From a virus: DNA of 64,000 nucleotides. The notes under the pieces were generated by a model, which had not been told where the DNA came from, made no database searches, and saw only the letters and a list, made by a program, of their open reading frames with translations. The stretch lies in the UHGV virus genome UHGV-0064883; one strand, written 5' to 3'. Positions 3,709 through 59,423 of the stretch are shown here, piece by piece. Numbering within the stretch: position 1 is the first letter of the stretch; each line of letters begins with the position of its first letter. A program made the translations under genes and the position numbers.

Positions 3709-6700
3709 ATGGCCCAGGCGAATCAACAGGCGGAGCGTATTATTTTTGACGCGGAAATTTCTTCCGCGCAGTCAAACCTGGCAAAACTGCGCACGGAATT
3801 AAATCTGATAGTGGCGGCGGCGGCAAAGACCAATGCCGCCCTTTCACGGATTAACCTGTCTGGGATGTTTGGCGGGGCCGGGGCGTCAGGAAAAGGGCTT
3901 TCCGGAATGGCGGGCGGCGTAAACGCGTCAAAGACATTTGCCGCAGCGCAGAATGCCGCCACCATGTCAACAAACAGGCTGACCACAGCTATGCGGGCCG
4001 GGGTAGGCACGGCTGGAGCCTACAGCAGGGCATTGGCCGGGGCCGCCGCATCAGCCGGGCTATTGTCCGGAAGCCGTATCGGCCAGACAATCAATACGGC
4101 GAGAGCGCCTATGCGCGGGGCCAAAGCGGAATCTGACGGGCTGCGTTCCAGCTTTTCCGGCGTAGGGCTTGCGGCTACAGGGGCCGCCGTGGCGGTGCTG
4201 GGCTTTGCTACCAAGCTCACGGGCATCATCCGGGAATCTTCGGAAGCCGCATCCAACATGCAGCAGCTGAATACTGTTTTTGGTGTATTGCTGCAAAGCC
4301 AGTCCAAAGGCTCTGCACTTCTCGAAGAGGTCACGCAGTTTGCCGCTGCCACGCCTATGAAGGTTCCGGAATTGGCCAATGCTACGCGAGTTTTGCTGGC
4401 CTACGGCGAAAGCTCCACGACTGTCATGAGCACTCTCCGGAGGCTGGGCGATATTGCGGCCGGTACGGGACAGCGCATTGATGAAATCGCCACCCTTATC
4501 GGTAAGGCGCGGCAGGCTGGCCGCCTGTACGGTGACGACCTGAACCGCCTGAATGACCGCGGCATTCCTCTTACTGCTACATTGGCGAAAAATTTCGGCA
4601 TCACCAGCATGGAAGTCCGAAAGCTGGTGGAGCAGGGGCGGGTAGGGTTTTCCGCGCTGGAAGACGCTATTAACGAAGTAACCAACGAGGGCGGCCTTTT
4701 TTACGGCATGCTGGAAAAGCAGTCCAAAAACTATGGCGGCGTGATGTCCACGTTGGAAGATAATATTACTCTGGCGAAAAAAGCATTTGGCGCACCTATC
4801 AATAACGCCCTGACGCCTATCCTGCAGGATGCCATTGAAATGCTCAAGGAAATGAAGCCCCAGTTTACCGAGCTGGGTGAGGCAATGGCCCCAGTAGTCG
4901 CCAGTTTGGTCACGGCGTTCAAAGACCTTGTCGTCTGGATTGGCGAAAACGGGAAGCAGGTTTTGGACCTTGTGCAGACCTACGGCCCCCTTGTGGCTAA
5001 GGCTCTGGCATTGGCGGCAGCAGTCAAAGCCGCCCAAATGGTGTTTGGCGCTCTTGGCGCCATTATCCGGGGGATTACCGGAACCTTAAGCGGGTTTACG
5101 TCAATAATCACCACAGCCGCTTCGGCGGTGATAAACCTGGGTTCCACCCTTGACCGTCTTGCGGCTAAATATGCAACTGCCGGAGTGGCGGCCAGGACCG
5201 CAGGGGCACAAATAGCCGCCTCTTCCGCAATGATGGGGGCTGCTTCCGCAGGTGCTGCCGCCGCAGGGGCTGGCAGAGCTGGTGGAGTTGTCGGGGCCGG
5301 AATTGCCGCCGCAGGAGCCGCTGCACCAGCCATAGGGTCGGCGATACGCGGTCTTTCCACCGGCTCAAAAGTGTGGTCAGTGGTAAAGGGTGTAGGAGGC
5401 AAGCTGGGAGGAATACTTGGCCCTCTTACCGCACTGCATGTTTTAGGTAAAGTTTCTGATGGCCTGTTTTCCGGCGACGCTCCATTGTCCTGGGGAGCCA
5501 AGCTTAATTATGGGATAGCCGGCGCTCTTGGCCTGGCAAGCTTCATCCCCAAAATCGGATGGATTACCGGCCCCCTGGGCGAGTGGTTTGCGTCAATGGG
5601 CGACGACATCAAGGAGGCGGACACGGCGAAATACATGCAGGGCCAGTATTCACAGGCGCTTAAATCCGCCCCCGGCAAGGGCCTTAAAAACGTTTACCGG
5701 AAACAGCTGCTCAATTTGTTCCAGTCGGAAGAATCCGGGACGCGGGGCGACCGGACGGTTTCCTCCGTGCAGGAAGAACTGCGGCAGGAAATCTCAAGGC
5801 AGACTGCAATACTTGATAAACAACTCCGCGATAACACGGCTATTTCCGACGGGCAAAAAGCTTTGCTCAAGCGCCGCCTTGAATACCTCCGGAGCATTGA
5901 CGACGCCACCATATCGCGGTGGACGGAACAGCTGCTTGACGAGACGAAGAACGCGGCTGGACGGGCCAAGTATGATGCGGTCATCGCCGCCGAGCAGGAA
6001 GCCGCCAGACGGGCGAATGAGGAACGGAGAGCCGCCGAACGTTATGGTCAGGTCAAGGACAACCGCGTTAAATTACAGGAAGCGGAAATCAGGTACGCGT
6101 CCGGAATAGACCAGCAGATGTTCTGGTGGCGCAGGCGGCGGACGGCATTGCAGGAAGCGCAGCCTGACGTTCAAGCGCTGCTGACCGGCCCGGACACCGG
6201 AGCTTACATGACGGAAAAGCTTGGAGCCGATTTCCGCATCCGGGGGACCGAAGACATTAAAAAAGTGCTGGATGCGGCAGGGGAATCCGAAGACACGGTA
6301 ATTTTTGCCAGCGAAAATGTGCTGAACCTCCAAAAAGCCTACGAGAAAATTCTCGACTACGAAAAAGAAGAGAAAAAACTCCGGGATTCCAAGCAGGAAT
6401 ACGACAGGCAGGAGGAAGAGCGGACGCGAAGCCTCAACGTGCTTAAACAGAAACTCTATCTTGACCAGGCTTACGCCGCAGGGCTTATCAACGCGGAACA
6501 GCGAACACAGTATGAAGACCAGCTCAAGGCTATTGACGCGGCAAAATCTTTCATGGATGCCGGCATGGACCGGGAGGAAGCCATGCAGATGGGCGTGGCT
6601 TCGGTGGAAGCCGAACGGAGGGCGGCGGGGCAGGCCGCCATTGACAACGCGGCGGAAACCTATAAATCCGCCGCTACGGGAACCCTTGCACGACAGGGCT

Positions 6701-6897
6701 GGGTGGATGTTATTTCACTGGGCTGGCGCAAGGATTCCGCCGGGGCGTATCTGGACCCGAACCGTTATGACGAACAGACCACCGGCCCCTATCAGGACGA
6801 GGACACGGATTTGTTGAAAAAAATCAACGATACGCTGGAAGCCATTCAGGCGAATACCAACCCCGACCTGAAAAAGTCCTCGGTTGTGTGGGGATAA
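3709..6897 (+). CDS. Tail tape measure protein (TP901-family core domain)
   Basis: 1062 aa with Ala/Gly-rich coiled-coil regions. The conserved tape-measure core (...GDIAAGTGQRIDEIATLIGKARQAGRLYGDDLNRLNDRGIPL...LFYGMLEKQSKNYGG...) is present. The antisense ORFs inside it are shadow ORFs. Confidence 0.9.
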   Translation: MAQANQQAERIIFDAEISSAQSNLAKLRTELNLIVAAAAKTNAALSRINLSGMFGGAGASGKGLSGMAGGVNASKTFAAAQNAATMSTNRLTTAMRAGVGTAGAYSRALAGAAASAGLLSGSRIGQTINTARAPMRGAKAESDGLRSSFSGVGLAATGAAVAVLGFATKLTGIIRESSEAASNMQQLNTVFGVLLQSQSKGSALLEEVTQFAAATPMKVPELANATRVLLAYGESSTTVMSTLRRLGDIAAGTGQRIDEIATLIGKARQAGRLYGDDLNRLNDRGIPLTATLAKNFGITSMEVRKLVEQGRVGFSALEDAINEVTNEGGLFYGMLEKQSKNYGGVMSTLEDNITLAKKAFGAPINNALTPILQDAIEMLKEMKPQFTELGEAMAPVVASLVTAFKDLVVWIGENGKQVLDLVQTYGPLVAKALALAAAVKAAQMVFGALGAIIRGITGTLSGFTSIITTAASAVINLGSTLDRLAAKYATAGVAARTAGAQIAASSAMMGAASAGAAAAGAGRAGGVVGAGIAAAGAAAPAIGSAIRGLSTGSKVWSVVKGVGGKLGGILGPLTALHVLGKVSDGLFSGDAPLSWGAKLNYGIAGALGLASFIPKIGWITGPLGEWFASMGDDIKEADTAKYMQGQYSQALKSAPGKGLKNVYRKQLLNLFQSEESGTRGDRTVSSVQEELRQEISRQTAILDKQLRDNTAISDGQKALLKRRLEYLRSIDDATISRWTEQLLDETKNAAGRAKYDAVIAAEQEAARRANEERRAAERYGQVKDNRVKLQEAEIRYASGIDQQMFWWRRRRTALQEAQPDVQALLTGPDTGAYMTEKLGADFRIRGTEDIKKVLDAAGESEDTVIFASENVLNLQKAYEKILDYEKEEKKLRDSKQEYDRQEEERTRSLNVLKQKLYLDQAYAAGLINAEQRTQYEDQLKAIDAAKSFMDAGMDREEAMQMGVASVEAERRAAGQAAIDNAAETYKSAATGTLARQGWVDVISLGWRKDSAGAYLDPNRYDEQTTGPYQDEDTDLLKKINDTLEAIQANTNPDLKKSSVVWG

Positions 6898-6937: not shown

Positions 6938-7738
6938 ATGGCTATTTCACACAACGGACCGCGGGAACCCATTGAACAGCCCGGAACGATGACCGTCGAA
7001 CGAGTGTCGGAAGACGGCGTAGTCCGGTTTGAAAAATCAGCAACCAGAGTGTTTGAGGTTCCGAAGGATATGGCGGCGGCCTTCATGCTGACCCCCCCGG
7101 CAACCCCCATGCCGGGAACAATCTTTTTGGAATCAAGGTGTGAAGAAGAAAATGCGGAGTGGTCCAAGGTGACATTCACCTACGGCGAAGACCCGGACGA
7201 TTCATCCGGAAGCGGCGGAGACGATTCCGTGCGCCGAACGGTCAACGTCACTACCTCTTTAGTAGATATCCCTATCCAATGTTCGCCAAAGTACATTGAC
7301 ATTTCCGGGGATTCCCCAAAATCGAAAATTCCTGATGACGATTTAAAACTTCTAGCCTATGCCATGTCCGGGCAGTTCAAAGACCCCCGGAACAACACCT
7401 ATATTAAGGACAGCCTTACGTCGGACATGGCTCGTGAGATTTTCGACTACCTGACGCTCGGAATCACCCACTTTGCCTATCCGCAGACCGTGATACGCAT
7501 CTCTTACCCAAAGTCCAAAGTAGGTTCCGGCCAGCAATTCGGCGTTCCCACTAAAACACCCGGAAAAAAGGGAGATGCCATTCCAGTAAAACTTCCGGAA
7601 GACAGCAAAATTGATTTCACATTGATTTCCCGGTCTATCAACTACGACGGGAAATACCACACGACAGACGAGGAATACCAGTCATCGTCCCCGTTGGGCT
7701 GGAAAAATGACCGGAAATTCTGGGGGGAAGGAGAATAA
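6938..7738 (+). CDS. Putative distal tail protein (by position after tape measure)
   Basis: First ATG of ORF 6884-7738; the track start lies inside the palindrome. No family motif recognised. Confidence 0.35.
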   Translation: MAISHNGPREPIEQPGTMTVERVSEDGVVRFEKSATRVFEVPKDMAAAFMLTPPATPMPGTIFLESRCEEENAEWSKVTFTYGEDPDDSSGSGGDDSVRRTVNVTTSLVDIPIQCSPKYIDISGDSPKSKIPDDDLKLLAYAMSGQFKDPRNNTYIKDSLTSDMAREIFDYLTLGITHFAYPQTVIRISYPKSKVGSGQQFGVPTKTPGKKGDAIPVKLPEDSKIDFTLISRSINYDGKYHTTDEEYQSSSPLGWKNDRKFWGEGE

Positions 7739-12889: not shown

Positions 12890-12917
12890 GTTGACGGCTT
12901 TTCCGGGCGCAAGTATC

Positions 12918-13535
12918 ATGGCAGGCATGAAACGGTTACGTTTGATGCCTGTCTTTTTTGTGATTGCCGGGTGCGCCCAGCAAAACCCGCAGCCGTCCAT
13001 TACTACGCCCGTACCGGAGCCGGTTGTGGAAAAAACAGTCGTCCGGCCTGTAGCGTCGTCAACGGTCGAATGCGCGGCTACTGTCCAGGAAGCGGCCAAC
13101 GCCGTGCAGAACAGTATTGCGGCTATTGTCTCCACTCTGCAGCAGGCGGAGGCCGCCACACAGGAACCGCAAACCCCCGGATGGGCTGACATGTTGTCCG
13201 AGCTGGCAAAGCAGGCCGGAAACGCGGATAAGCAAACCGCCGTGCTGATAGACCGTTCCGACCGCCTGACCAAACAGGTGACCGCTTTATCCGGAACGTG
13301 CGAACAACTGGCGGAAGAACGGGACGCGGCAATCAAAACCGCGCAGGAATCCAGAGACGCAGCCTCGGCAATCAAGGCGGAAGCCGCAGAGGTAAAAGCT
13401 GATGCACAGGCCCGCCTGTCCTCCATGTCGGACGAGCGTTCCTGGTGGCGGAAATGCGCCCTTTACACCTGGGCAGGCATTGCGGTTTTTTGTTTGGCGT
13501 GGCTCGGAATCCGGCTGGCAAGGGCCGCCAGATAG
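12918..13535 (+). CDS. Lipoprotein with coiled-coil and C-terminal TMD (unimolecular spanin-like)
   Basis: N-terminal signal with a lipobox (VIAGC), an Ala/Gln/Glu-rich coiled-coil region, and a C-terminal hydrophobic helix (ALYTWAGIAVFCLAWLGI) followed by a basic tail. Lies upstream of the holin/endolysin pair. Confidence 0.45.
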   Translation: MAGMKRLRLMPVFFVIAGCAQQNPQPSITTPVPEPVVEKTVVRPVASSTVECAATVQEAANAVQNSIAAIVSTLQQAEAATQEPQTPGWADMLSELAKQAGNADKQTAVLIDRSDRLTKQVTALSGTCEQLAEERDAAIKTAQESRDAASAIKAEAAEVKADAQARLSSMSDERSWWRKCALYTWAGIAVFCLAWLGIRLARAAR

Positions 13536-13551
13536 CGGGAAAATATTCTCA

Positions 13552-13570
13552 ATTTGCAATCATTGCAAAC
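13552..13570. repeat. 19-bp palindrome ATTTGCAATCATTGCAAAC (copy 3)
   Basis: Immediately after the spanin-like gene, at the start of the AT-rich noncoding region. Confidence 0.85.
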
Positions 13571-14211
13571 CGGAAAAACCGGTGATTCAAGGCCGTAATT
13601 CTACGGTCTTTTTTATTTGTCAATATTGTTTTTTACGTTTTTATAACTTATTGAGCATCATTTGGTTGCAAATAGTATGCACCAAGAAATTTCTAGTTTA
13701 GTTATTTGTCATTGAGTATTAGATACTTACAAATAATTTGCACTTTTATAAGTTCAGGGCATTTGCAGGCGTTTGAGTATCAATAAGTTATAAATGCACT
13801 AAATCCGGAAAAACGCGCTGAATCCGCAATGGGTGCAAATATAACCAGCTGATTATCATATCATTGTGCATAACTTGCACTTGCGCGGAAGTGCATTTAT
13901 TTTACAAACTACTGAAAATGAACAGGTTATAAAGACAACCAGAAGGGAAAAACGTCAATTTTTGTTTTTATAAGTCATTGAACTATATGAAATTATAAAA
14001 AATTTGCACTTTGGGAGTGCATTAATATATATATATATATAATGTTCGTTCCTCACATTAATATATATCTATATTCTCCGTCCTTACCCTAAAGGGTAAG
14101 TACGGGGCCTGGGCTGTTCCGCCCAGGCACTCTGGGACAGGGTTGGAAGAGTAGCCCAGAGTGTGAAATTTCCACTACTGTTCCGGCCAGTTTCATGATA
14201 CGGTTCCGGGG
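13571..14211. other. AT-rich 640-bp noncoding region with TTATAA and TGCAC(T) motifs, (AT)n and hairpins; candidate origin or regulatory hub
   Basis: No ORF of 60 aa or more. GC content is far below the 55% genome average. Repeated TTATAA, AATTTGCACTTT and GTGCATTT motifs. Inverted repeats GCACTTgcgcggAAGTGC and TGCACTttgggAGTGCA. (AT)9 at about 14031-14048. Confidence 0.5.
14083..14170 (+). ncRNA. GC-rich cluster of three consecutive stem-loops (candidate structured RNA)
   Basis: CCGTCCTTACCC-taaa-GGGTAAGTACGG, then CCTGGGC-tgttcc-GCCCAGG, then CACTCTGGG-(18 nt)-CCCAGAGTG. Sits 40 nt upstream of the holin ATG and is not tRNA-like. Confidence 0.25.
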
Positions 14212-14562
14212 ATGAAAAACCTTCCGCAAATCGTCAAGGACAGTTGGCGCGATATTATCGCTTTTTTGCTCATTGGCATTTTTCTCTCCATTGGCGTGGA
14301 ATACCTGATTCGCCTCTCGGTCATCATGGACGTTACCGGGGCAGCTTCCTTCATCGCCTTGCTGCAGGGCTTCACCAAGTTTGCCGGGGCCAATCTCTGC
14401 GCATGGCTGCTGGGAGCCAATGTGGCCTTCCCGTACATTTCCCGTTGGGCCAGATTCGACTTCAATGCGACCTGGCGCACGATGGAGGGGTTCCGGAAAG
14501 TCCAATGCTTCCTCGCGGTTGCCATCGGGGAATTGCTCATGGCCGCCATCTGCTTTGCCTGA
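14212..14562 (+). CDS. Holin (about 3 TM helices)
   Basis: 116 aa with three hydrophobic helices. Ends 8 nt before the endolysin start. Confidence 0.55.
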   Translation: MKNLPQIVKDSWRDIIAFLLIGIFLSIGVEYLIRLSVIMDVTGAASFIALLQGFTKFAGANLCAWLLGANVAFPYISRWARFDFNATWRTMEGFRKVQCFLAVAIGELLMAAICFA

Positions 14563-15575: not shown

Positions 15576-17249
15576 ATGACATCACAAGAAAAATACATTC
15601 AAAAATTGGACGACATGTTCGCCAGCGCGGTGAGTGTCGTATTTACGCCAAGCCGTGAACCGCGCAGAACTGTAGAGGCTGTCAAGGCAATGGGGGCGCG
15701 GGACAATGTGCCGGTGTTCGTCTGGAACGATGTGTACGGCTGGAAAGTCTTTACCGGACAGGACCGCACCGTAGGAGTCCCGGTTGACGCGGATTCCCCG
15801 GTAGGCAATTTTTATCAGGCGTTGCGCCGCATCCTGGGATTTAAAATCGGGGAAAACACCAGTAACGCGTCTTCCCGATTTGATTATGAAAAAGGCGCGG
15901 CGTATATCGTCATGGAGGGCACTAGCCCGCATCTTGGTTTGCTTCCAATGACGACAACTCTTCTCAAGGATTACGCCTATTCCTTCCCGGAAACGCTCAT
16001 GAGCCTTGTGTTGATTACGTCGGAATCCTACACCATTCCGGAAGAGCTGGCCCACGACATTCTGGTTGTGGATTTTGACCTGCCGACAAAAACCGACTTG
16101 CGCCACGCATGGGAAAGCACTGTAGCCAATCAGTACGAGTCCAAGAACCTTCCGATTCCCGAAACCTATATTCCGGGGGACAGCGTGGATGCGCTGGTCA
16201 ACGCGGCATCCGGCATGACGATTCTGGAAGCGGAAACTGCGTATTCGAGGGCTTTCACCCTTAATGACCGCCTGTTCCCGGACATTCCCGTTGAAAATCT
16301 TCTCGCGCAGGTTCACCGCTCGAAGGAAGACATTGTGAAAAAGTCGCAGACGCTGGAAATGGTTAACCCCATTCCGGTTGATTCCATCGGCGGCCTGGAA
16401 CTGCTGAAAGACTGGTTTATCACGCGGTCGGTATGTTTCAGCGAAGAGGCCCGCAAGGCGAAAGTTGATGCGCCTAAAGGCGTAGCCCTTATCGGGCCGC
16501 CAGGAACGGGTAAGTCGGTATGCTCCAAGGCGGTGGCATCCATTCTCAATCTTCCCCTCGTGCGGGTGGATTTGGGGCGGCTGTTCGGGTCTCTCGTCGG
16601 CCAGACGGAAGCCCGCACCCGGACCATGTTGAAGGAATTGGAAGCTATGGCCCCCTGCATTGTCTGGGTGGACGAAGTTGACAAGGCGGGCTTGTCTTCC
16701 GGGGCTAATGGAGATTCCGGCGTATCTTCCCGCCTGCTGGGTTCTCTGCTGACCCACATGTCGGAAAATGAGTCTGGCTTGTTCTGGATTTTCACCGCCA
16801 ACCGGACGGAAAACCTTCCGTCGGAATTCTTGCGGAAGGGGCGGCTGGATGAAGTATTTTCCGTTCTGCCTCCGACTTGGGCCGAACGCCGCCAGATTTT
16901 CGACATCCACTTGAGCAAGCGCGGAATCAATATTGATGATATTGTTGACTTTGACCAGGTGCTGACGGAAAGCCGGGGATTCGTGTCTGCGGAAATTGAA
17001 GCCGCGTGCAAGGAGGCGAAAGTACTTTCTTTTTATCGCAATGTTCCGGTTACGAGCAGCCTTTTGCGGTCCACCCTTAAAGGCATCATTCCAATTTCGG
17101 AAGCGTACAAAGACCAGTTTGACGCTATGACCGAGTGGGCGCAGAATAACGCGAGGCCGTCTTCCGAGCAAGAGGTTGACGTTGATGCTTCCAGCCCGCT
17201 TCCGTCCAGCATTCCGGAATCGTTGCGTGCCCGCCGCCGCAGGCATTGA
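15576..17249 (+). CDS. AAA+ ATPase (single AAA domain, CDC48/FtsH-like)
   Basis: Walker A GPPGTGKS, Walker B VWVDEVDK and an arginine-finger region, with a GAGGG ribosome-binding site. The 554-aa antisense ORF 15582-17246 is a shadow ORF. Confidence 0.8.
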   Translation: MTSQEKYIQKLDDMFASAVSVVFTPSREPRRTVEAVKAMGARDNVPVFVWNDVYGWKVFTGQDRTVGVPVDADSPVGNFYQALRRILGFKIGENTSNASSRFDYEKGAAYIVMEGTSPHLGLLPMTTTLLKDYAYSFPETLMSLVLITSESYTIPEELAHDILVVDFDLPTKTDLRHAWESTVANQYESKNLPIPETYIPGDSVDALVNAASGMTILEAETAYSRAFTLNDRLFPDIPVENLLAQVHRSKEDIVKKSQTLEMVNPIPVDSIGGLELLKDWFITRSVCFSEEARKAKVDAPKGVALIGPPGTGKSVCSKAVASILNLPLVRVDLGRLFGSLVGQTEARTRTMLKELEAMAPCIVWVDEVDKAGLSSGANGDSGVSSRLLGSLLTHMSENESGLFWIFTANRTENLPSEFLRKGRLDEVFSVLPPTWAERRQIFDIHLSKRGINIDDIVDFDQVLTESRGFVSAEIEAACKEAKVLSFYRNVPVTSSLLRSTLKGIIPISEAYKDQFDAMTEWAQNNARPSSEQEVDVDASSPLPSSIPESLRARRRRH

Positions 17250-49080: not shown

Positions 49081-49403
49081 TTCAGAGACTACGGCCAAAA
49101 AGCTTTTTTCCTTTACTTTTCACTTTTCCGGCACAAACAATACCAGCCCATGAAGTTCCACAGCCTTTCCATGCTTTTTACGCTCCGTGGCCCTCCCCGC
49201 CCTGTTTTTCAGCTTGTCCCCCAGGCAATCCGCGAACGGTCGGATGCGCGAGGACGGGAACGCATCATTTCCCGCGTCTGAAATAAATGGCTTTCACCAT
49301 CAGGCGCAATCTCCGCATTTCCTTTTTCTGTTGCCTTCGCCGGATTGCCCCCCCCTCGTCAGGAAGGGAACGGCAAACCGTAACCATAAACAAAAAGATA
49401 GAA

Positions 49404-50279
49404 ATGACAGTTCAAACCTTACCGGCAACCGTGCCGGACAGCGTTTCTGCGACCTTGCGCGTCGTCATGAAGCCCGTGGAATCAATTCACCCCTACGAAA
49501 ATAACCCCCGCTACAACGACAGCGCGGTTCCCTACGTCAAAAACTCAATTCAGGAGTTCGGCTTCAAGGTTCCGATTATCGTCGATGAAGCCGGAAGCAT
49601 TGTCTGCGGTCACACGAGGTACAAGGCGGCCCTGGAATTGGGCATGAGCCATGTGCCTTGCATTGTCGCTTCGGATTTGACCCCAAAGCAGATTCAGGCG
49701 TTCCGCCTTGTTGATAACAAGGTGTCGGAGTTTTCAAGCTGGGATTTTTCCAAACTTGAAATTGAGATAGGGGAGCTGGATGCCGAATTTAATCTTGATG
49801 ACTTCGGTTTTTTCTCCGATTCAGAGCGGGCGGGAAGCTCGCCGGCGGATGTGGGCAGTGCCGCAGAAATGCAGGATGATACTGCGAGGGATGACCGGAA
49901 TATCTATACAGGACGCATCATTACTCCGGTTTATGAAATTACCGGGGATTGTCCAAAAACCGAAGAGCTGGTTGACCGCACCAGAGCGGAATCCCTGCTG
50001 GAAGAGATTGACCGGACCCCAGGGCTTCCGGATGCCGTGCGTGACTTTTTGCGTATTGCCGCCATGCGGCACTATGTCCTGCATTTCGACAGGATAGCCG
50101 AGTTTTACGCCCATGCGGTCCCTCCTGTGCAGCGGCTCATGGAAAACTCCTGTCTGGTCATTATTGATTATGACCGCGCCATTGAGCTTGGATATGTGCA
50201 AATGGCACGTGCCCTGGCCGATGAATACGACCGAGAATACCCGGAAGGGGAGGAACAGGAAGGAGGCGGCGAATCATGA
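49404..50279 (+). CDS. ParB-like N-terminal (ParB/Srx) nuclease-domain protein 1
   Basis: IHPYENNPRYND...GFKVPIIVDEAGSIVCGHTRYKAALELG matches the ParB N-terminal domain with its GxxR arginine motif. The C-terminal domain is shared with copy 2. Start is an internal ATG of ORF 49287. Confidence 0.65.
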   Translation: MTVQTLPATVPDSVSATLRVVMKPVESIHPYENNPRYNDSAVPYVKNSIQEFGFKVPIIVDEAGSIVCGHTRYKAALELGMSHVPCIVASDLTPKQIQAFRLVDNKVSEFSSWDFSKLEIEIGELDAEFNLDDFGFFSDSERAGSSPADVGSAAEMQDDTARDDRNIYTGRIITPVYEITGDCPKTEELVDRTRAESLLEEIDRTPGLPDAVRDFLRIAAMRHYVLHFDRIAEFYAHAVPPVQRLMENSCLVIIDYDRAIELGYVQMARALADEYDREYPEGEEQEGGGES

Positions 50280-51211
50280 TGCGGCACTCTGATTTCTGCG
50301 TCTTGATTATTTCCCATGGACGGGCCGGGAGGGTGAAAACCCTGAACGCGCTTGAGCGTTTTGGCTACAGCGGCCCCTGGTACATCGTCATCGACAATGA
50401 GGATTCACAGGCCGGAGACTACCTTAATTGCTACGGGAGTGACCACGTTGTTGTTTTTGATAAACCCCTTGAGGCATCCAGGCTGGACATAGCGGATAAT
50501 TTTACAGGCCGTCTTGGGCGCAAAAGCACCGTGTACGTACGCAATGCGAGCTTTGACATTGCCCGCCGCCTGGGATTCCGGTATTTCATGGTGCTGGACG
50601 ACGATTACGACTATTTCCGTTTCGTATTGGACAGCAACCGCCGCTATACTTGCCGGCGCTGTGTCTGTCTGGACACAATCCTTGACATCTGCCTCGATTA
50701 CTTCACCCGTACACCGGCCCTTGCCACCATAGCGTGGCTTCAAGGCGGCGACCTGCTGGGAGGGGCCAACTCCAACAGCCTTTTCAGCCTCCGGCGAAAA
50801 GCCATGAACAGTTTTATCTGTGACACGGAACGCCCCTTTTCCTTCATGGGCCGGTTTAATGAAGACGTGAACACCTACATCACTCACGGAAACCGGGGAG
50901 TGGTCATGTTCTCAATTACGGAATTGGCGCTTAACCAGGCCAGCACCCAGCAGACGGCGGGAGGGATGACGGAAGCCTACCAGGAAAACGGAACCTACGT
51001 GAAATCGTTTTACAGCGTCATGCATATGCCGTCTGCGGTGAAAATCCGGACAATGGGCGAACGTTACCGAAGAATCCACCATGCTATTACATGGAATAAT
51101 TGTGTACCGAAAATCATCCGTCCGGAGTACCGGAAACCGGATATTGTGCGGGGTGACAGGAGAAAACGCGGCAGGAGCCGAAAAAAACTGCTTGCAATTC
51201 CGGCCCCTTAA
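50276..51211 (+). CDS. GT-A-like putative nucleotide-sugar transferase 1 (DxD-like motif)
   Basis: Hydrophobic beta1 CVLIISHGR, WYIVIDNED, and FMVLDDDYDY at about aa 105, consistent with a GT-A fold DxD. ATGA overlap with the ParB-like gene. Paralog at 54342. Confidence 0.35.
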   Translation: MMRHSDFCVLIISHGRAGRVKTLNALERFGYSGPWYIVIDNEDSQAGDYLNCYGSDHVVVFDKPLEASRLDIADNFTGRLGRKSTVYVRNASFDIARRLGFRYFMVLDDDYDYFRFVLDSNRRYTCRRCVCLDTILDICLDYFTRTPALATIAWLQGGDLLGGANSNSLFSLRRKAMNSFICDTERPFSFMGRFNEDVNTYITHGNRGVVMFSITELALNQASTQQTAGGMTEAYQENGTYVKSFYSVMHMPSAVKIRTMGERYRRIHHAITWNNCVPKIIRPEYRKPDIVRGDRRKRGRSRKKLLAIPAP

Positions 51212-53396: not shown

Positions 53397-53419
53397 AACC
53401 ATGCTAAGAATCCATGAGA

Positions 53420-53438
53420 ATTTGCAATCATTGCAAAT
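53420..53438. repeat. 19-bp palindrome ATTTGCAATCATTGCAAAT (copy 15)
   Basis: Ends 20 nt before the ATG of the second ParB-like gene. Confidence 0.9.
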
Positions 53439-53458
53439 TTCAAAAATCGTTTTCGCAC

Positions 53459-54295
53459 ATGGAAATTGTAGATATTGCCGTAAAAGACCTGATTCCTTAT
53501 GATAAAAATCCGCGCCGTAATGATGAAGCGGCCGTCAAGGTGGCGGAATCCATTAAACAGTTCGGTTTTAAGATTCCCCTTGTGGTTGACCGCAATAATG
53601 TTGTTGTCTGCGGGCACACCCGTTTAAAGGCCGCAAAAAAGTTAAAGCTTAAAACTGTTCCCTGTATTCTCGCTGACGATTTGTCGGAAGACCAAATCAA
53701 GGCGTTCCGTCTGGTAGATAACCGGACGGCGGAAATCGCCGAATGGGATTTTGCCCTTTTAGAAGAGGAACTGGCGGACGTGCAGCTTGACATGACCGCC
53801 TTTGATTTCGACGACCTTTTGGCAGAAGAGGAAGCCGGAAGCGAAAACAGTCAGACCCCAGTAGGAGCCGAAAGGGAGGAAGAAAGCGCATCACCGGAGT
53901 CGCAAACTGCAGAAAATATGTACACGCAGCGCATCGTCACTCCGGTTTATGAGGTTACCGGAGATTGCCCGGAAGTGTCTTCCCTGGTGGACAAGGGCAA
54001 AGCGGAAGCGCTGCTGGAATCCATTAACCAAGCCCAGGAACTCCCGGATGATGTGCGGGAGTTTTTACGCATCGCCGCCGCCAGGCATTATGTTTTGCAT
54101 TTTGACCGCATCGCTGAATACTACGCCCACGCCCCGGCCCATATTCAGCGGCTCATGGAGGATTCCTGTCTGGTTATCATTGATTTTAACAAAGCCATTG
54201 AGCAGGGATATATCCGCATGTCCGAACGATTGGCCGCGCTGGCCAGCATAGACGAACAGGGCGCAACGGAAGAAGAAGACGAAGCGGACGAATAA
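53459..54295 (+). CDS. ParB-like nuclease-domain protein 2 (diverged paralog of 49404-50279)
   Basis: LIPYDKNPRRND...GFKIPLVVDRNNVVVCGHTRLKAAKKL. The C-terminal YTQRIVTPVYEVTGDCPE...LRIAAARHYVLHFDRIAEYYAHA is about 70% identical to copy 1. Confidence 0.65.
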   Translation: MEIVDIAVKDLIPYDKNPRRNDEAAVKVAESIKQFGFKIPLVVDRNNVVVCGHTRLKAAKKLKLKTVPCILADDLSEDQIKAFRLVDNRTAEIAEWDFALLEEELADVQLDMTAFDFDDLLAEEEAGSENSQTPVGAEREEESASPESQTAENMYTQRIVTPVYEVTGDCPEVSSLVDKGKAEALLESINQAQELPDDVREFLRIAAARHYVLHFDRIAEYYAHAPAHIQRLMEDSCLVIIDFNKAIEQGYIRMSERLAALASIDEQGATEEEDEADE

Positions 54296-54341
54296 CACAG
54301 GCCGCTTTGATTTTTTTACCGCAATAACTTTTCTTTTTTTT

Positions 54342-55205
54342 ATGCTGACGCATTCCGATTTTTGCACGTTTATTTTGTCTCATGGACGGCCAAACAATAT
54401 CAGAACCCTGCACCCGTTGCTAAACACCGGAAATTACAGCGGCCCCTGGTACATCATTATCGACAATGAGGACCCCACGGCGGAAACCTACTATCAGCTT
54501 TACGGCTCCGACCGGGTAATCATGTTTGACAAGGAGGCCGAAGCCCGTCGCCTGGATATTGCAGATAATTTCGTCCACATGAGCCGCAAGACCATTACCT
54601 ATGCCCGCAATGCCTGTTATGACATTGCCAAAAACTTGGGCTACACGTATTTTTGGCAGCTGGATGACGATTATTGCCGGTTTCGGTACGTGACCGACCA
54701 GGCCGGAAAATACGTGTACCACAGCATCCGCCACCTGGACGAAGCGTTGAACGCGACCCTTGATTATTATAAAAGCGTTCCTTCCCTGACCCTGTTGTCC
54801 TGGATGCAGGGCGGGGATTTACTGGGCGGCGCCAACAGCCAGTCTCTGACCGTGGTGAAGCGAAAAGCCATGAACAGCTTTATTTGCTCTACCGAGCGCC
54901 CCATAAAGTTCCGGGGCCGGATGAATGAGGACGTAAACACCTATGTTTCCGAGGGCAACCGGGGAAAGCTCATTATGATGGCGAATTGTGCCGGCATTTT
55001 ACAGACCCCCACCCAGATTAACGACGGAGGAATCACGGAACTTTACAGGTCTTGCGGCACTTACACCAAGGCAATGTACACTGTGATGCACATGCCCTCA
55101 GTAACTACAGTGGGCATGATGCACAGCACTTTTCCCCGGATTCACCACACAATAAATTGGAACAACTGCGTTCCGAAAATTATCCGGCAGGAGCTTAAAA
55201 AATAG
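54342..55205 (+). CDS. GT-A-like putative nucleotide-sugar transferase 2 (paralog of 50276-51211)
   Basis: MLTHSDFCTFILSHGRP...WYIIIDNED...YFWQLDDDYCRF; about 55-60% identical to copy 1. Confidence 0.35.
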   Translation: MLTHSDFCTFILSHGRPNNIRTLHPLLNTGNYSGPWYIIIDNEDPTAETYYQLYGSDRVIMFDKEAEARRLDIADNFVHMSRKTITYARNACYDIAKNLGYTYFWQLDDDYCRFRYVTDQAGKYVYHSIRHLDEALNATLDYYKSVPSLTLLSWMQGGDLLGGANSQSLTVVKRKAMNSFICSTERPIKFRGRMNEDVNTYVSEGNRGKLIMMANCAGILQTPTQINDGGITELYRSCGTYTKAMYTVMHMPSVTTVGMMHSTFPRIHHTINWNNCVPKIIRQELKK

Positions 55206-55293
55206 AGCTTTTCCGGGAAGAAAGACCCTTCATCTATCGGCCCTGTCTGGATATTAGCCCGGCAGGGCCGCAGTATATCTTTCTCTTTTTCTC

Positions 55294-55431
55294 AATTTGC
55301 AATCATTGCAAATTTTTTTTCTCAAAAAAGATTCTTTTTCTCTTGCAATTTATAAAAAATAATGCTAAATTACATTCATCAAAGGGAGGGAATAACTCTC
55401 CTACAGCAAAAAGCCTGAAAGTTAAAACATA
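55294..55431 (+). promoter_or_regulatory. Palindrome (copy 16) plus conserved promoter/leader cassette
   Basis: ATTTGCAATCATTGCAAAT, then TTGCAA-17nt-TAAATT, then CATTCATCAAAGGGAGGGAATAACTCTCCT (stem GGAG/CTCC). Confidence 0.55.
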
Positions 55432-55683
55432 ATGAAGACTGCAACCATCATTTACCGCTGGACCGCCAAAACCTCTTCCAGATGTCTTGGCCGCTATTAT
55501 ACCGCCAGCACCCTGCTTGAAGCCATTAAGGCGGGAAAAGAATTTGTGACCCGTGAGTTCCACGGGACGGGTTCCGTACTTATTGAAGCTTCCCTGGACG
55601 GAGGAAAAACCTGGCACGTTAATCGCGAATACAGACGCGACCGTTATACCCAGATGCGCTGGACAGCGGAAGTTTTCTATTGA
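55432..55683 (+). CDS. Small protein, paralog family A (with 44430-44690)
   Basis: YRWTA...TLLEAIKAGKEFVTREF...ASLDGGKTWHV. Confidence 0.45.
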   Translation: MKTATIIYRWTAKTSSRCLGRYYTASTLLEAIKAGKEFVTREFHGTGSVLIEASLDGGKTWHVNREYRRDRYTQMRWTAEVFY

Positions 55684-55769
55684 TACCCCCTTCCCCGGCT
55701 GGAAATTATATTTGGCCGGGGAATAAACCTGATTTCATTATTATTTACTTAAATCATAAAGAAAAAACC

Positions 55770-56060
55770 ATGAACAGAAACGTAACTAAAACCGTAACCC
55801 ATCATATTCTTCCCTGTCTGGGCCTTCTGATTGTTGAAGCCGTCTCCTGCGTGCTTGCCGTCTATGGCATTGTTATCCTGCTTGGATATGACGCGCCTTC
55901 CCTTTATTGTGTGTTATCCGGGATTCTGAAAGCTATCGCGCTGGTAATATTGCTTCTCATCAGCGTGGGAAGCCTGGTGGGTATTGTGGGTGTGGCAGTG
56001 CATCTTTTTTCCTCAAATTGCCGTTGCCAGGAAGAAGACAGTGATGAAATTAACCGATAA
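55770..56060 (+). CDS. Small membrane protein
   Basis: Two or three TM helices (ILPCLGLLIVEAVSCVLAVYGIVILLG; AIALVILLLISVGSLVGIVGVAV). Confidence 0.4.
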   Translation: MNRNVTKTVTHHILPCLGLLIVEAVSCVLAVYGIVILLGYDAPSLYCVLSGILKAIALVILLLISVGSLVGIVGVAVHLFSSNCRCQEEDSDEINR

Positions 56061-56075
56061 TCCTCCAGACAAAAA

Positions 56076-56636
56076 ATGAAATTGACGCTTGAACAAAAAG
56101 CTTTTTATGAATATGGCCGGGCTGTGGAATCCCTCAAGAGGACAATTTACGAAACCCGCGAAACTGCTATTCAGGAATTCAAAGACCCATACCGCTTTCT
56201 TTCGACATATGACCGGAAACAGCTGATTGACGCAATGGGTCTTGCCTCGGAGATTTCTGCTGTCCGGCAGAAGCGTGCCGCGTGCAGGGCGTGGAAGTTG
56301 CTAGCACAAAGACATTGCCAGAATTGTTGTTATTACGGAAAATCCGGTAATGATGCGCCCTGCGTCGATTGTACCTTGGGAGACATTGGTGATGATACTC
56401 GTCTTAGCTGTAATTGGGCGCCAAGGCGCAAGTTCAGAAAAGGTGATATTGTACGTCGGATTGATACCGGAAAAATGCGGGCGTATGATGACCATATTCC
56501 ATTCGGAAAACTTGTAACCATACTGAAAGACGAGACTGATGACGACTGCGGAAATATCTTAGTAGGAACTAGAGAAACTACGCAGGCCGTAAAATTCTAT
56601 GAAGTGAAACTTTTTTTAAAAAAAGCTAACGATTGA
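56076..56636 (+). CDS. Cys-cluster protein, paralog family B (with 45901-46258)
   Basis: MKLTLEQKAFYEYGRAV... and a CQNCCYYG...CVDC cluster. Confidence 0.4.
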   Translation: MKLTLEQKAFYEYGRAVESLKRTIYETRETAIQEFKDPYRFLSTYDRKQLIDAMGLASEISAVRQKRAACRAWKLLAQRHCQNCCYYGKSGNDAPCVDCTLGDIGDDTRLSCNWAPRRKFRKGDIVRRIDTGKMRAYDDHIPFGKLVTILKDETDDDCGNILVGTRETTQAVKFYEVKLFLKKAND

Positions 56637-56837
56637 TTGAACATGAAAAAAGAAAAACTTAAATGTTTTATATGCGGGCAAGCAGTAGAATTAGTTGGTG
56701 ACTCTGCTCAAATAGAACGTATGGGTTATGACAGGCACAATGACCGTCCGTTTTTTAATGTCTGCCGTGAATGTCAACAACTTATCGACAAATGCCTTAT
56801 AGAATTTGAGCAGAAATTTCCAGATGAAGACGCTTAA
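56637..56837 (+). CDS. Small zinc-ribbon protein
   Basis: CFICGQ...CREC, 66 aa. Confidence 0.35.
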   Translation: MNMKKEKLKCFICGQAVELVGDSAQIERMGYDRHNDRPFFNVCRECQQLIDKCLIEFEQKFPDEDA

Positions 56838-57168
56838 ATGTCCACTGTGCGGGAGTTTGTTGAAACTGGATTTCAGTTGCAAATATATCTGCCCCAATTG
56901 CGAACTAGCTGCAAAAAGCGGAATCTCAAAAGAAGAGGCACTAAAACGTGCGGAAAAACTTATTTCTCAATTCCCACCTATCATGCGGGTATTTCCAGGA
57001 GATAAGTTAAAGTTTTTTAACCACCAAATGCGCCAGAAAATTGCATACATAGAAAAAGTTAATTTGAAGTCTGGCTGGATAAAAACAAATAAAGGATTTG
57101 CCCGCCCGGATGATGTGATTCTGTGGCCTTGGGAACTTGAACAAAAAGAAGAAGGAGATAAACAATGA
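56824..57168 (+). CDS. Zinc-ribbon protein, paralog family C (copy 2)
   Basis: MKTLKCPLCG...CPNC, then ISQFPPIMRVFPGDK, then WPWELEQ. Confidence 0.45.
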   Translation: MKTLKCPLCGSLLKLDFSCKYICPNCELAAKSGISKEEALKRAEKLISQFPPIMRVFPGDKLKFFNHQMRQKIAYIEKVNLKSGWIKTNKGFARPDDVILWPWELEQKEEGDKQ

Positions 57169-57506
57169 AAACACCTAGATGTCCGCTGTGCGGAGAAGAA
57201 TTAACGCCGTCTGTACAAAAATACGGATTTGAATACGTCTGCTGGAAGTGCAAATGGCAAACCGCTTCACTTTGCTCCACCAGGCAAGAAGCGGAAAAAA
57301 CAGCTCAAAAGCTAATCTCCAAGTTCCCTCCCATCATGAGGGTTCATCCTGGCGATAAGCTTCATGACAAGTGGTGCGGGCTGGTCACGGTTGAATCCGT
57401 CGATAAGGAAGACTGTGTAATCACAGTACGAACTGTCAAGGGGAATGTATCCCGTACTTATTGCGAGGATGTTAATGAATGGCCCTGGGAAATCGAACAA
57501 GAATAA
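57165..57506 (+). CDS. Zinc-ribbon protein, paralog family C (copy 3)
   Basis: MKTPRCPLCG...CWKC, then ISKFPPIMRVHPGDK, then WPWEIEQ. ATGA overlap with copy 2. Confidence 0.45.
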   Translation: MKTPRCPLCGEELTPSVQKYGFEYVCWKCKWQTASLCSTRQEAEKTAQKLISKFPPIMRVHPGDKLHDKWCGLVTVESVDKEDCVITVRTVKGNVSRTYCEDVNEWPWEIEQE

Positions 57507-57509
57507 ATT

Positions 57510-57803
57510 ATGGACATAAATGAATTGTTAGAAGATAAGGATAACGGGCTTGTTCCGTTAGACGGGCGCAGTTATGATATAGCTGCATACGCTGGACAAC
57601 TACGGCAGGCCCGGAATCTTTTACTGGGTTCCCTGCCCGCTGAAACAGTGGCTTGCATGTCGGATAATGAAGTACTCCAAACTTTGGTTGACTGCAAGAA
57701 TCTCGTTCCAGTCGCCGCCTCCTATAAAGACGGCATAGACGATGAAGTCATCTTTCTGGTTCCGGCGGAAATATTGAAGAGGTGCAGGGTTCTGCAACGC
57801 TGA
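57510..57803 (+). CDS. Hypothetical protein
   Basis: 97-aa ORF. Confidence 0.35.
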   Translation: MDINELLEDKDNGLVPLDGRSYDIAAYAGQLRQARNLLLGSLPAETVACMSDNEVLQTLVDCKNLVPVAASYKDGIDDEVIFLVPAEILKRCRVLQR

Positions 57804-57862
57804 ATGATTTTCCGGCAAACCACGCTATGAACGGAAAAACATGAGAAAAAAGGAATCATGCA

Positions 57863-58270
57863 ATGACCGATATTCTTCTATCTATCAAAAAGCCGTTCTC
57901 CGACCTCATTTTGTCGGAGGAAAAGAAATGGGAGCTGCGGAAAACCGAACCCCGCGCCATGAAAGACGGCCCCATAATGCTCTGGCTTTATGAATCCGGG
58001 AAGGATGGGGCGCATGCCATTATTGGAAAATGCCAGACAAAGTATGCGCTGCCCATGCTCCAACAACTGAACAACTGGCAACGCCTGTGGATGATGCGGG
58101 AAGCCTGCATCACGAAAGAATACCTGTCTTCCTACATCCCCTGCCGCGCCTGGAACCTCACCAGCCCCGTGCGGCTTCCCTACGCCGTACCGCTCTCTGA
58201 AATCGGCCTGGTCCGCCCTCCGCAGTCCTGGCAATACCTCACCGAAGAACAAGCAGCACTTTTACGATGA
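57863..58270 (+). CDS. ASCH-domain (PUA-like) protein
   Basis: N-terminal ILLSIKKPFSDLILSEEKKWELRK matches the ASCH start pattern (ILLSIKP-x-Y-x-x-I-x-x-G-x-K-x-x-E-x-R). Confidence 0.45.
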   Translation: MTDILLSIKKPFSDLILSEEKKWELRKTEPRAMKDGPIMLWLYESGKDGAHAIIGKCQTKYALPMLQQLNNWQRLWMMREACITKEYLSSYIPCRAWNLTSPVRLPYAVPLSEIGLVRPPQSWQYLTEEQAALLR

Positions 58271-58420
58271 AAAACCCTATAAAATTTCTACAGCACATGA
58301 TTACCGGCATACAGACTGCCACCCCCCCCCACCTCTACTACCGCCGCCGAAGAAACCCCGGAAAGGCAGACGTACAGGAATCTCCGGCAGGCATGGAGAT
58401 ATTACTACCGCACTCACAAG

Positions 58421-58633
58421 GTGGATTTGGCCATTCTTTACCAGTTAACCGGCCTGCGTGACCGGCTGGACCCGGACAAAGACCCGGAACAGTACGCCCA
58501 TGCGGTGAAGGCGGTGGAAGCCATCAATGGTGTCCTGGCTCAAAACCGGATTATCCAGACACGCATTTCCGCCCTGATGACCGACTGCCGGAAAAAGTAC
58601 GAGAAAAACAGAACGCCCCATCATGAGCAGTAA
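58421..58633 (+). CDS. Hypothetical protein; possibly the C-terminal part of a gene split at a C9 tract
   Basis: 70-aa ORF. The upstream ORF 58267-58461 carries a C9 tract (58322-58330). Deleting one C would fuse the two frames. Confidence 0.3.
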   Translation: MDLAILYQLTGLRDRLDPDKDPEQYAHAVKAVEAINGVLAQNRIIQTRISALMTDCRKKYEKNRTPHHEQ

Positions 58634-59423
58634 TTTTGAAATACCGCCCCAGGAACTTTATGTTGACTGGCCGGAACAGCCCTGGCCCCGCCTGTCAGGG
58701 CAGCTTGACCGGAAGCAGCTCCGCCGCGAATTGCTGGACGTGCTGAAACATCTTTCAAACAAGGCGAAACTCCGTATTGGGCCGTCCGGGACCACCAGCA
58801 AGAAAGTACATTATGCCTGCGAATCCAGATATACCCGTCTGATAGCCTCTGACTGTGTGGCGCTGGCCGTCATTACCCGGAAACGGCTGGAAGCTGACAA
58901 GCCGGCAGGCTATTGCGGGCATATTGCACCCAAATCGGGAAGAATCTACCCCGACAAGCCGAACTACTTCACGCAGTTCTGGAAACGGTCGATGCCCGGC
59001 AGCCCGGAATGCACCATTGCCATCAACTACGATACGTGCATTGCCAGCCTCGAACGGTTTGCCTTTTTCGCCAATATGGCTGATTCCAGCCAAAACTGCT
59101 GCGCGGAAAATTACTATTTTGGCGTAACAAACCGCCGTGGAAACTTTATTGCCGTCCATCCGTGCTATATCGGCAATTTTCTCCGGCTGGTGGAAATCCT
59201 GCACCGCCATCTTGGCGGCCGATTGAAAATGACCCTGCGCGTTCCCGCCGCACAGAGCGGCCCTCTGCGTTTTTCCTTCCTGGCGGGCAAGAATGCGGGC
59301 GATTGCTATATTCTGGACTACGCCGTAATGCCGTTCTGGCATAAGCATCCCCTCAAAGGCTTCCGCCGCGTGGCGCTGAACTGCTTCCAGATAGGCAATT
59401 GGGCGGGGAAGAACAAGCCCTGA
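58623..59423 (+). CDS. Hypothetical protein
   Basis: 266-aa ORF. Confidence 0.45.
   Translation: MSSNFEIPPQELYVDWPEQPWPRLSGQLDRKQLRRELLDVLKHLSNKAKLRIGPSGTTSKKVHYACESRYTRLIASDCVALAVITRKRLEADKPAGYCGHIAPKSGRIYPDKPNYFTQFWKRSMPGSPECTIAINYDTCIASLERFAFFANMADSSQNCCAENYYFGVTNRRGNFIAVHPCYIGNFLRLVEILHRHLGGRLKMTLRVPAAQSGPLRFSFLAGKNAGDCYILDYAVMPFWHKHPLKGFRRVALNCFQIGNWAGKNKP

Follow-up and report, generated by a model that had tools for sequence, protein, structure and literature searches.

Several phage elements described to date offer points of comparison for the locus treated here. In phage T4, early transcripts of gene e hide the ribosome-binding site in a hairpin and late transcripts start inside that hairpin, and in phage lambda the 'sdi' stem-loop of S is a case of mRNA structure controlling the translation of a lysis gene. 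Lambda also possesses the pR'-qut-6S leader upstream of holin S, as well as tripartite operators made of 17-bp dyads ~23-24 bp apart. Among replication origins, those of lambdoid phages lie inside the initiator gene, the lambda-type iteron origin consisting of four ~18-bp repeats with internal dyad symmetry beside an AT-rich stretch and being bound by the O protein, and ori(uvsY) and ori(34) of T4, like the T7 origin with its phi1.1A/B promoters followed by an AT-rich stretch, are composed of a promoter plus an unwinding element. Here, we analyzed the noncoding gap between a spanin-like gene and a holin-like gene in an uncultured gut phage, virus genome UHGV-0064883 (the window, that is, the whole stretch of 64,000 nt that was studied). 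As in T4 gene e and lambda sdi, structured RNA just upstream of a lysis gene is predicted to pair with the translation start, and as in lambda pR'-qut-6S, a noncoding control region with a structured leader appears to stand immediately upstream of the holin. We tentatively favor the view that the gap is a lysis-gene control region composed of a terminator, a protein-binding array with an operator/promoter and a folded leader that hides the holin start, an interpretation that we rate as falling somewhat short of probable.

The gap extends from 13536 to 14211 (676 nt), between the stop of the spanin-like open reading frame (ORF) at 13535 and the holin ATG at 14212. The original prediction had placed a 650-bp gap at 13552-14211, and its description as AT-rich and noncoding was confirmed with the extent revised. 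For genome-wide comparisons, the window was joined to related contigs (the L023 and L010 extensions) as a composite circular map of ~87.3 kb. Between-strain comparisons made use of a second clade (L056, L057 and L075; hereafter the L056 clade) that is 79% identical to the window in the gap and 85.7% identical over 10.7-17.2 kb, and of ten further strains added via the exact holin sequence; polymorphism was assessed in 16 strains with 15 haplotypes. The features of the gap are as follows.

13552-13570, strand not assigned: copy of a genome-wide palindrome, ATTTGCAAT-C-ATTGCAAA, with a slightly degenerate 3' end (AAACC vs. AAATTT)
13569-13583, plus strand: small hairpin ACCGG-AAAAA-CCGGT, invariant between clades
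13589-13616, plus strand: intrinsic terminator AAGGCCGTA-ATTC-TACGGTCTT followed by a T-run, with a 9-pair stem at 13589-13610
13613-13655, plus strand: conserved block TTATTTGTCAATAYTGTTTTTTAC..TTTTATAACTTATT, with ~40 of 43 positions identical between clades
13641-14010, plus strand: six phased units with the consensus GTTATAAAT(AATTTGCAC), a motif unique to the locus
13876-13895, strand not assigned: dyad 1, TGCACTT-GCGCGG-AAGTGCA, then TTTATTTT; perfect only in the window clade
14005-14021, strand not assigned: dyad 2, TGCACTY-TGR-GAGTGCA, with arms invariant in both clades
14025-14071, strand not assigned: (TA)8 within an AT-rich imperfect palindrome in which 14028-14045 pairs with 14055-14071; the loop, TTCGTTCCTCA, is invariant
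14072-14214, plus strand: GC-rich structured leader with hairpins at 14079-14104, 14107-14128 (invariant) and 14132-14186
14195-14215, plus strand: six-codon upstream ORF, ATG ATA CGG TTC CGG GGA TGA, whose stop overlaps the holin ATG as ATGA

Evidence that the leader hides the holin start comes from folding and from the comparison of clades. The leader folds better than shuffled sequences (z = -3.7) and is closed by a helix between 14072-14078 and 14208-14214, the latter (GGGGAUG) including the holin start codon. In an alignment of seven sequences, 98.4% of cells were paired and six pairs showed compensatory changes, vs. none in slid controls; coding control windows gave 0-2 such pairs, with a maximum of 4. 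The conserved hairpin set spans the last ~210 nt (14005-14214) and includes dyad 2 as helix 1, with an innermost pair that is either C-G or U-G, the AT-rich palindrome as helix 2, with one G-C to A-U compensation, and the closing helix as helix 3, with C-G to U-A and U-G to C-G changes. A structure that takes in the holin AUG and carries compensatory changes was conserved across the two clades compared, and the AUG is predominantly paired when the full leader is folded (unpaired probabilities of 0.11 for A, 0.47 for U and 0.19 for G). The ATG and frame of the upstream ORF are preserved in all aligned strains.

Patterns of variation indicate that the gap as a whole is under selection. It is exactly 676 nt long in 16 of 16 strains, with an invariant (TA)8, and segregating sites make up 6.7% of it, as opposed to 15.5% of third codon positions (p = 9e-9). 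With respect to the L056 clade, 18.5% of gap sites are fixed differences, not significantly fewer than the 20.7% at third positions. Polymorphism and divergence part company within the gap: the array is 7.4% polymorphic and 22.5% fixed (divergence excess odds ratio 2.3, p = 5e-4) and the GC-rich leader 3.7% polymorphic and 19.4% fixed (odds ratio 3.9, p = 0.004); in both, the between-clade divergence is close to the third-position rate. Conservation across clades is highest from 14004 to 14075, where polymorphic and fixed sites each make up 7.0%. A low mutation rate of AT-rich DNA would reduce both measures and therefore does not explain the divergence excess. From these comparisons we conclude that the array and leader changed between clades by compensatory or co-evolutionary substitution; sites that co-evolve with a partner, whether through binding or pairing, should show such an excess of divergence over polymorphism. 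Taken as a whole, comparative analysis indicates that the gap is functional noncoding DNA under selective constraint.

The absence of coding content is in keeping with this view. As originally predicted, the gap holds no plus-strand ORF of at least 45 aa, and it is the longest such stretch of the genome; between-clade substitutions within it lack codon periodicity (39/36/30). Hidden small genes were considered and rejected, since the small ORFs of the gap are absent from the 79%-identical clade and the substitutions are aperiodic. An antisense ORF at 14089-14196 is open in both clades; it was not taken as coding because the protein is only ~69% identical while the DNA is ~83% identical. A GC content of 30%, as first reported, applies to the core (30.1% at 13600-14080), the value across 13552-14211 being 36.2%; the accompanying figure of roughly 55% for the genome was too high, the window as a whole having 52.2%. 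The least stable duplex of the ~87-kb genome falls in the gap by nearest-neighbor stability, with minima at 14027-14066 for 40 bp, 13977-14076 for 100 bp and 13778-14077 for 300 bp. An (AT)9 tract had been reported near 14031-14048; the alternating run is real and is a 17-nt (TA)8 at 14025-14041. No other occurrence of TATATATA was found in the 87-kb composite genome. Searches of GenBank phages gave no match to the gap, no bacterial genome was found to carry its invariant hairpin, Rfam covariance models gave no match at gathering score anywhere in the window (the best match in the gap region at E<=10 had E = 0.28), and an ARAGORN-type search found no tRNA or tmRNA. A transposon-like insertion with terminal inverted repeats was rejected, as the borders show only low-complexity AT matches, and so was a physical genome end or packaging site, as long contigs end elsewhere and the terminase gene is 33 kb away.

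At its left edge, the gap begins with the palindrome copy that had been proposed as its upstream boundary, which we placed at 13552-13570 and which is kept in the L056 clade. Together with the small hairpin and the terminator it forms three consecutive hairpins (fold z = -4.4). The terminator has a G+C-containing hairpin with a T-run immediately after it, downstream of a stop codon, and its stem is preserved in the L056 clade (79% identical) with the wobble position shifted. Fixed differences are few in 13536-13625 (9.0% vs. 20.7% at codon position 3), and 13586-13635 is 92% identical between clades. Judging by its position and structure, the terminator reads as the end of a late transcription unit comprising the tail, glycosyltransferase and spanin-like genes. 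Within the conserved block that follows (13613-13655), TTTATA/TATAAC comes 17-19 nt after TTGTCA.

The middle of the gap is occupied by the array. Unit cores are located at 13665, 13726, 13787, 13863, 13926 and 13992 (spacing of 61, 61, 76, 63 and 66 bp), and the core GTTATAAAT common to all six is often followed by AATTTGCAC and accompanied by TTTGCAC. Inverted copies, TTATAAC/G, are found between units at 13641, 13746, 13839 and 13968, and similarity covers ~45 of the 61 nt of a unit. An 18-nt position-weight matrix of the unit gave no strong match elsewhere in the 87-kb genome, which makes the array a single-locus cis element and not a general promoter class. The L056 clade has near-perfect cores. 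Those of the window clade are degenerate, and TGCAC is commoner there instead: TGCAC/GTGCA occurs nine times in 13671-14020, an enrichment well above chance, vs. a window average of 0.63 per 350 bp, the next-best 350-bp window having four. The motifs singled out by the original prediction were largely recovered. Multiple TTATAA hexamers are indeed present (6 of the 13 window copies lie within the gap), and both of the other repeated motifs are real, with AATTTGCACTTT exact only at 13735 and 14001 and GTGCATT at 13891 and 14017, its reverse complement being at 13793. Both perfect inverted repeats exist, at coordinates 1-3 nt from those first given. Of dyad 1, nothing is conserved in the L056 clade except the right arm plus T-run. 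Dyad 2, which reads TGCACT-TTGGG-AGTGCA in the window, directly adjoins TTAATATATATA and may serve as an operator-like site or else form the hairpin at the 5' end of the leader.

The array units may bear some likeness to a Cas12a repeat. A CRISPR mini-array or mimic of a Cas12a repeat gained no support and was rejected, since similarity spans 45 of 61 nt and a hairpin is present in only two units. A pattern search of viral contigs likewise gave single matches in unrelated contexts, no more than a rough chance estimate, and a 17-mer search for the unit gave single matches in unrelated viral contigs.

Keeping these features in mind, a sequence of events can be proposed for the locus. The holin and endolysin genes lie directly past a strong terminator and the spanin-like gene before it; therefore, both lysis genes need a start of their own. 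Rightward transcription of holin and endolysin would begin inside the gap. One or more DNA-binding proteins may occupy the six GTTATAAAT/TTTGCAC units and the TGCACT...AGTGCA dyads and so set transcription, with dyad 2, against TTAATATATATA, possibly acting as the core operator/promoter. The folded leader would hold holin translation low or late until the structure is bypassed, conceivably by a shorter transcript, by RNA processing, by coupling to the six-codon upstream ORF or by a trans-acting factor, and the net effect would be control of lysis timing.

When the equivalent locus was examined in relatives, few holin homologues were found, and those of L050, L051 and L052 lie directly upstream of the endolysin or of a cut ORF there. 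In L052 (holin 65% identical) and L051 (36% identical) the gap measures 81 and 29 bp, respectively, and has no AT-rich region. L050 (holin 52% identical; 41.8% GC) shows full synteny and a gap of 355 bp with 29% GC that has no sequence similarity to that of the window. The L050 gap contains three CGTCTAAAT repeats at 7166-7260 with a 23-24 bp period, each with dyad symmetry, two of them being full 23-nt units, TCCCCCCCGTCTAAATTTTA[T/G]AC, and a TATATA-rich palindromic stretch comes after the repeats. Its perfect palindrome, GTCTAAATTTTAGAC, adjoins the same TTAATATATATA as dyad 2 of the window, so that a non-homologous gap offers an analogous layout: AT-rich, with repeats and a palindrome beside TTAATATATATA. 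Since the gaps differ among relatives, AT-rich control DNA at this site of the lysis cassette is lineage-specific, being present in some lineages and missing in others.

The case for lysis control can now be weighed. A regulatory region had been proposed for this stretch, and the proposal is upheld by the left-edge terminator, the constraint on array and dyads within the clade, the pairing of the leader with the holin start codon, the invariant 676-nt length in 16 strains and a polymorphism below half of the third-position level. Several observations speak against the fuller interpretation. Six units over 380 bp make a large array for a simple operator. A consensus scan for sigma-70 promoters (-35/-10, 16-18 nt apart, with A at position 2 and T at position 6 of the -10) found none in the gap; a candidate picked by eye, TTGCAC-N16-TATATA/TATAAA at 14004-14031, is kept in both clades and lacks the final T of the -10, and a better-looking one at 13875 is lost in the L056 clade. 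All compensatory changes stem from a single split between two clades, alifold finds equally many compensatory pairs on the minus strand (G-U pairs alone favor plus), and, when just a local -40 to +20 window is considered, the holin start comes no higher than 10th of 106 in inaccessibility. The L050 leader is unstructured, and the leader covariance model (R1) found no match in L050, L051, L052 or 19 other loci; therefore, the leader mechanism is not general in the group.

The most serious rival, which we consider possible although doubtful, is that the gap is an origin of bidirectional (theta) replication, perhaps overlapping lysis control. An initiator, possibly the RepO-like protein encoded at 19157, would bind the units or dyads, the (TA)8 palindrome would melt and the DnaB-type helicase would be loaded; such an origin could coexist with promoter activity as a transcription-activated origin. 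The earlier suggestion of an origin gains from a switch in GC3 skew within one gene of the gap and from the stability minimum; several points oppose it. Cumulative GC skew falls from 58 kb through 87 kb to 12 kb and rises from 13 to 58 kb. A two-breakpoint fit to GC3 skew per gene assigns +0.035 to the arc 12891-49049 and -0.103 to the rest (z = 8.5 vs. a maximum of 6.6 in 200 permutations of gene order), with the left breakpoint within one gene of the gap; because the fit is equally good one gene to either side, the breakpoint lies between 11.8 and 14.2 kb. A further point in favor is that the genes for DNA modification at 49-55 kb, although not structural, have the same negative skew as the structural arc. 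However, the breakpoint coincides with a module and terminator boundary, so that effects of transcription unit or gene class may be responsible, the two arcs are unequal (36 and 51 kb), and the homologous gap of L050 shows no skew change (+0.118 vs. +0.104). An origin would fit the genome-wide stability minimum, which would supply an adjacent AT-rich unwinding element, the single-copy repeat array and (TA)8, with six clustered direct repeats where iteron-type origins have three or more, and a replication module that begins ~1.4 kb downstream. The order of repeats, dyad and AT-rich DNA matches lambda ori, and L050 has three repeats with a 23-bp period beside an AT-rich stretch. On the other hand, the unit spacing of 61-76 bp is far wider than in classical iterons, the window clade has degenerate cores, the gaps of L052 and L051 are only 81 and 29 bp, and the RepO-like gene is 5 kb downstream, so that the gap is neither within nor next to the initiator gene nor conserved in that position among relatives. 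DnaA boxes (TTATNCACA) do not form a cluster: the gap has one site, 13865-13873, which the L056 clade does not keep, and the 2 boxes of the whole window are at chance level (1.4 expected). Relatives assemble as closed circles, which would suit theta replication (PMC8008677, on other gut phage families). Iterons inside the RepO-like gene were sought and rejected, as only three or four GAAAATC/GATTTTC copies with no AT-rich neighbor were found there.

Readings that combine or dispense with these functions were given less weight. It seems unlikely that the gap, in a phage that ranks among the most widespread of those of Akkermansia, is both a theta-replication unwinding site and a holin-gating promoter/leader that would couple replication state to lysis timing, with co-evolution of the array and an initiator/regulator defining clade-specific 'immunity-like' specificities. 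Quite unlikely, in our estimation, is that most of it is a relic: AT-rich DNA would have been inserted, a unit of ~61 bp would have duplicated in tandem and its copies would now be decaying, with the terminator and perhaps the proximal leader as the only functional parts. Similarity over ~45 of 61 nt is what tandem duplication would leave, between-clade identity in the array (~76%) hardly differs from the 72-76% at third codon positions, one clade has degenerate cores and two relatives lack the gap; yet array polymorphism is half that of third positions (7.4% vs. 15.5%, p = 3e-5), length does not vary among the 16 strains despite a dinucleotide run and repeats, and just ~4 small indels separate the clades over 676 nt at 22% divergence. 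We regard as improbable one or more independent noncoding RNAs, be it a long structured transcript of the whole gap or one antisense to the holin leader. For the array, alifold gives 9-11 compensatory pairs on either strand vs. 0-5 in 400-nt coding controls, including one 5-bp helix (13665-13670 with 13766-13771) with three compensations, and a minus-strand terminator-like site is present at 14021-14005. Nevertheless, the array folds weakly (-29 kcal/mol for 400 nt), up to 4 compensatory pairs appear in slid controls and the noncoding region has more substitutions than the coding controls. Concerted change among inverted copies of one motif could also account for the coordinated changes, Rfam gave no match, and all genes are on the plus strand.

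Turning to promoters elsewhere in the genome, the strong promoter cassette of the phage is TTTTTTCTC-TTGCAAT-N14-TGCTAAATT, ~50 nt long and with at least 11 genome copies. It is usually just downstream of a palindrome plus T-run and is followed by a conserved leader, CATCAAAGGGAGGGAAnCCCT, and then by A-rich start regions without Shine-Dalgarno sequences. Short-word BLAST of the gap against the composite matched only the palindrome and a 12-mer, the cassette being absent from the gap. The idea of a late-promoter cluster gained no support from these scans, which gave no consensus sigma-70 match and no phage cassette in the gap, and a general late promoter was rejected since no other part of the genome contains the unit motif. 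Approximate -35 positions of the cassette are:

17290, 24870, 26980, 28995, 36000, 36855, 41405, 44335 and 55340 (window)
64050 and 70320 (composite coordinates, past the right end of the window)

The palindrome at the left edge belongs to a near-perfect 21-bp family, AATTTGCAAT[C/G]ATTGCAAATTT, with ~24 copies in the ~87-kb genome that are always intergenic. In the early/middle region the T-run and strong promoter come next, and in the late region the copies are without a T-run and often stand 7-35 nt ahead of a start codon. The half-site holds TTGCAAT, as does the -35 element of the strong promoters. By its structure and placement, the palindrome could be a terminator/attenuator, an RNA processing site or a regulator-binding site. 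A scan of bacterial genomes gave chance-level matches only (Gemmataceae and Bradyrhizobium). The copies are at:

2898, 6913, 10705, 13554, 15526, 24826, 26935, 32127 and 35957 (window, copies 1-9)
36810, 41360, 43096, 44290, 49064, 53422, 55297, 59429 and 63753 (window, copies 10-18)
six more elsewhere

All large ORFs of the genome are on the plus strand. Upstream of the gap are a tape-measure gene, tail genes and two family-25 glycosyltransferases, and the genes bordering it are:

12891-13535, plus strand: spanin-like gene, 214 aa, with a lipobox (…VIAGC) at the N-terminus, a hydrophobic segment at the C-terminus and a long helical part between them
14212-14562, plus strand: holin-like gene, 116 aa, with 3-4 hydrophobic segments; first gene after the gap

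Domain searches gave no family match for the 214-aa protein, whose predicted layout reads as that of a unimolecular spanin; with such a layout upstream, the gap separates the spanin from the holin and endolysin. A lysozyme-like endolysin begins at 14571 and is followed by an 85-aa ORF and an AAA ATPase, and further downstream are the RepO-like winged-helix gene (19157), the DnaB-type helicase (20675), PolA, RNase H, a primase, a helicase, a UvsX-like recombinase and an exonuclease. Small proteins with no assigned function are encoded nearby at 15260, 17328, 18005, 18635 and 20108. Terminase is encoded at 47559, and the structural genes extend from 58.6 kb onward.

Other parts of the genome vary among relatives. 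An insertion of ~825 bp at 16505/16506 in L055, L187, L188 and L190 extends the AAA ATPase (15576-17249) to more than 832 aa, and the L050 homologue carries the intein-splicing domain PF14890; from the sequences, this looks like an intein presence/absence polymorphism. A stretch of ~4.6 kb at 54245-58859 (42-45% GC, small ORFs) is missing from IMG/VR contig 3300014804_000005, L005 joining 54244 straight to 58860 there; it has the appearance of a variable accessory island. At 49287-51211 and 53414-55205 there are two tandem pairs, each of a ParB-like-domain protein and a match to beta-glucosyl-HMC alpha-glucosyltransferase, whose domain content suggests DNA hypermodification. Three long metagenomic contigs of the phage (OGQX01000121, ERZ791906 NODE-229 and ERZ780005 NODE-5) end in the tape-measure gene (3709-6897) at ~4100-5200, likely due to an assembly break at repeats or to strain variation.

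One relative, OGTL01000081.1 (L055), is 98% identical to the window and was listed as an unclassified 'outlier' (Benler et al., 2021; PMC8008677). Its CRISPR-predicted host is NZ_CP015409.2 (PMC8008677), that is, Akkermansia muciniphila YL44 (PMC5026434), and the host assignment rests on this published spacer match, promoter type having given no host. Protein 17 of the same contig is a predicted anti-CRISPR candidate with a score of 0.92 (Benler et al., 2021, supplementary file 5; PMC8008677). No characterization of any Akkermansia phage was found in the literature searched. At least 1000 metagenomic contigs carry the holin sequence without any change, as do more than 2400 blocks of the sequence collection, and the cluster to which this holin belongs has 87 members. 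Metagenomes rich in the phage include ERR14001243 and ERR11457303, as well as the samples that yielded OGQX01000121 and OGTL01000081. The moderate interest of the locus derives mainly from how common the phage is. The gap is the clearest single-copy cis element of the genome and, if it is a lysis-timing switch or an origin, would be a natural start for studying or engineering the phage; it also presents a defined, testable case of a lysis gene with its start codon masked by a leader whose evolution proceeds by compensatory change.

As far as the evidence goes, the gap represents element types already known, in a form particular to its lineage, and introduces no new principle. It departs from T4 gene e and lambda sdi in the size of its leader (~170-210 nt, with three extra hairpins), in that no second promoter was found inside the leader's structure, and in having no sequence or Rfam relationship to either; moreover, Shine-Dalgarno sequences appear not to be used by the host at most genes of this phage. 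In common with the lambda operators, a dyad stands against an AT-rich -10-like stretch, and L050 has three sites at 23-24 bp. Unlike lambda pR'-qut-6S, the leader contains no terminator, its hairpins being without U-runs, no Q-like or repressor gene was identified in this phage, and it is the AAA ATPase and replication module, not structural genes, that come after the lysis genes. As in lambda ori, repeats and dyads adjoin the most easily melted DNA, with RepO-like and DnaB-type helicase genes nearby and a skew switch close at hand; unlike lambda ori, the gap is outside the initiator gene, its spacing is 61-76 bp vs. ~20-24 bp, its cores are degenerate, two relatives lack the element and no skew switch is seen in the syntenic L050. 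In comparison with the T4 and T7 origins, the motifs of the gap have no resemblance to MotA boxes or T7 promoters. Like those origins, however, the gap is intergenic, AT-rich, easily melted and possibly downstream of a promoter-like site, a layout that would reconcile the regulatory and origin readings.

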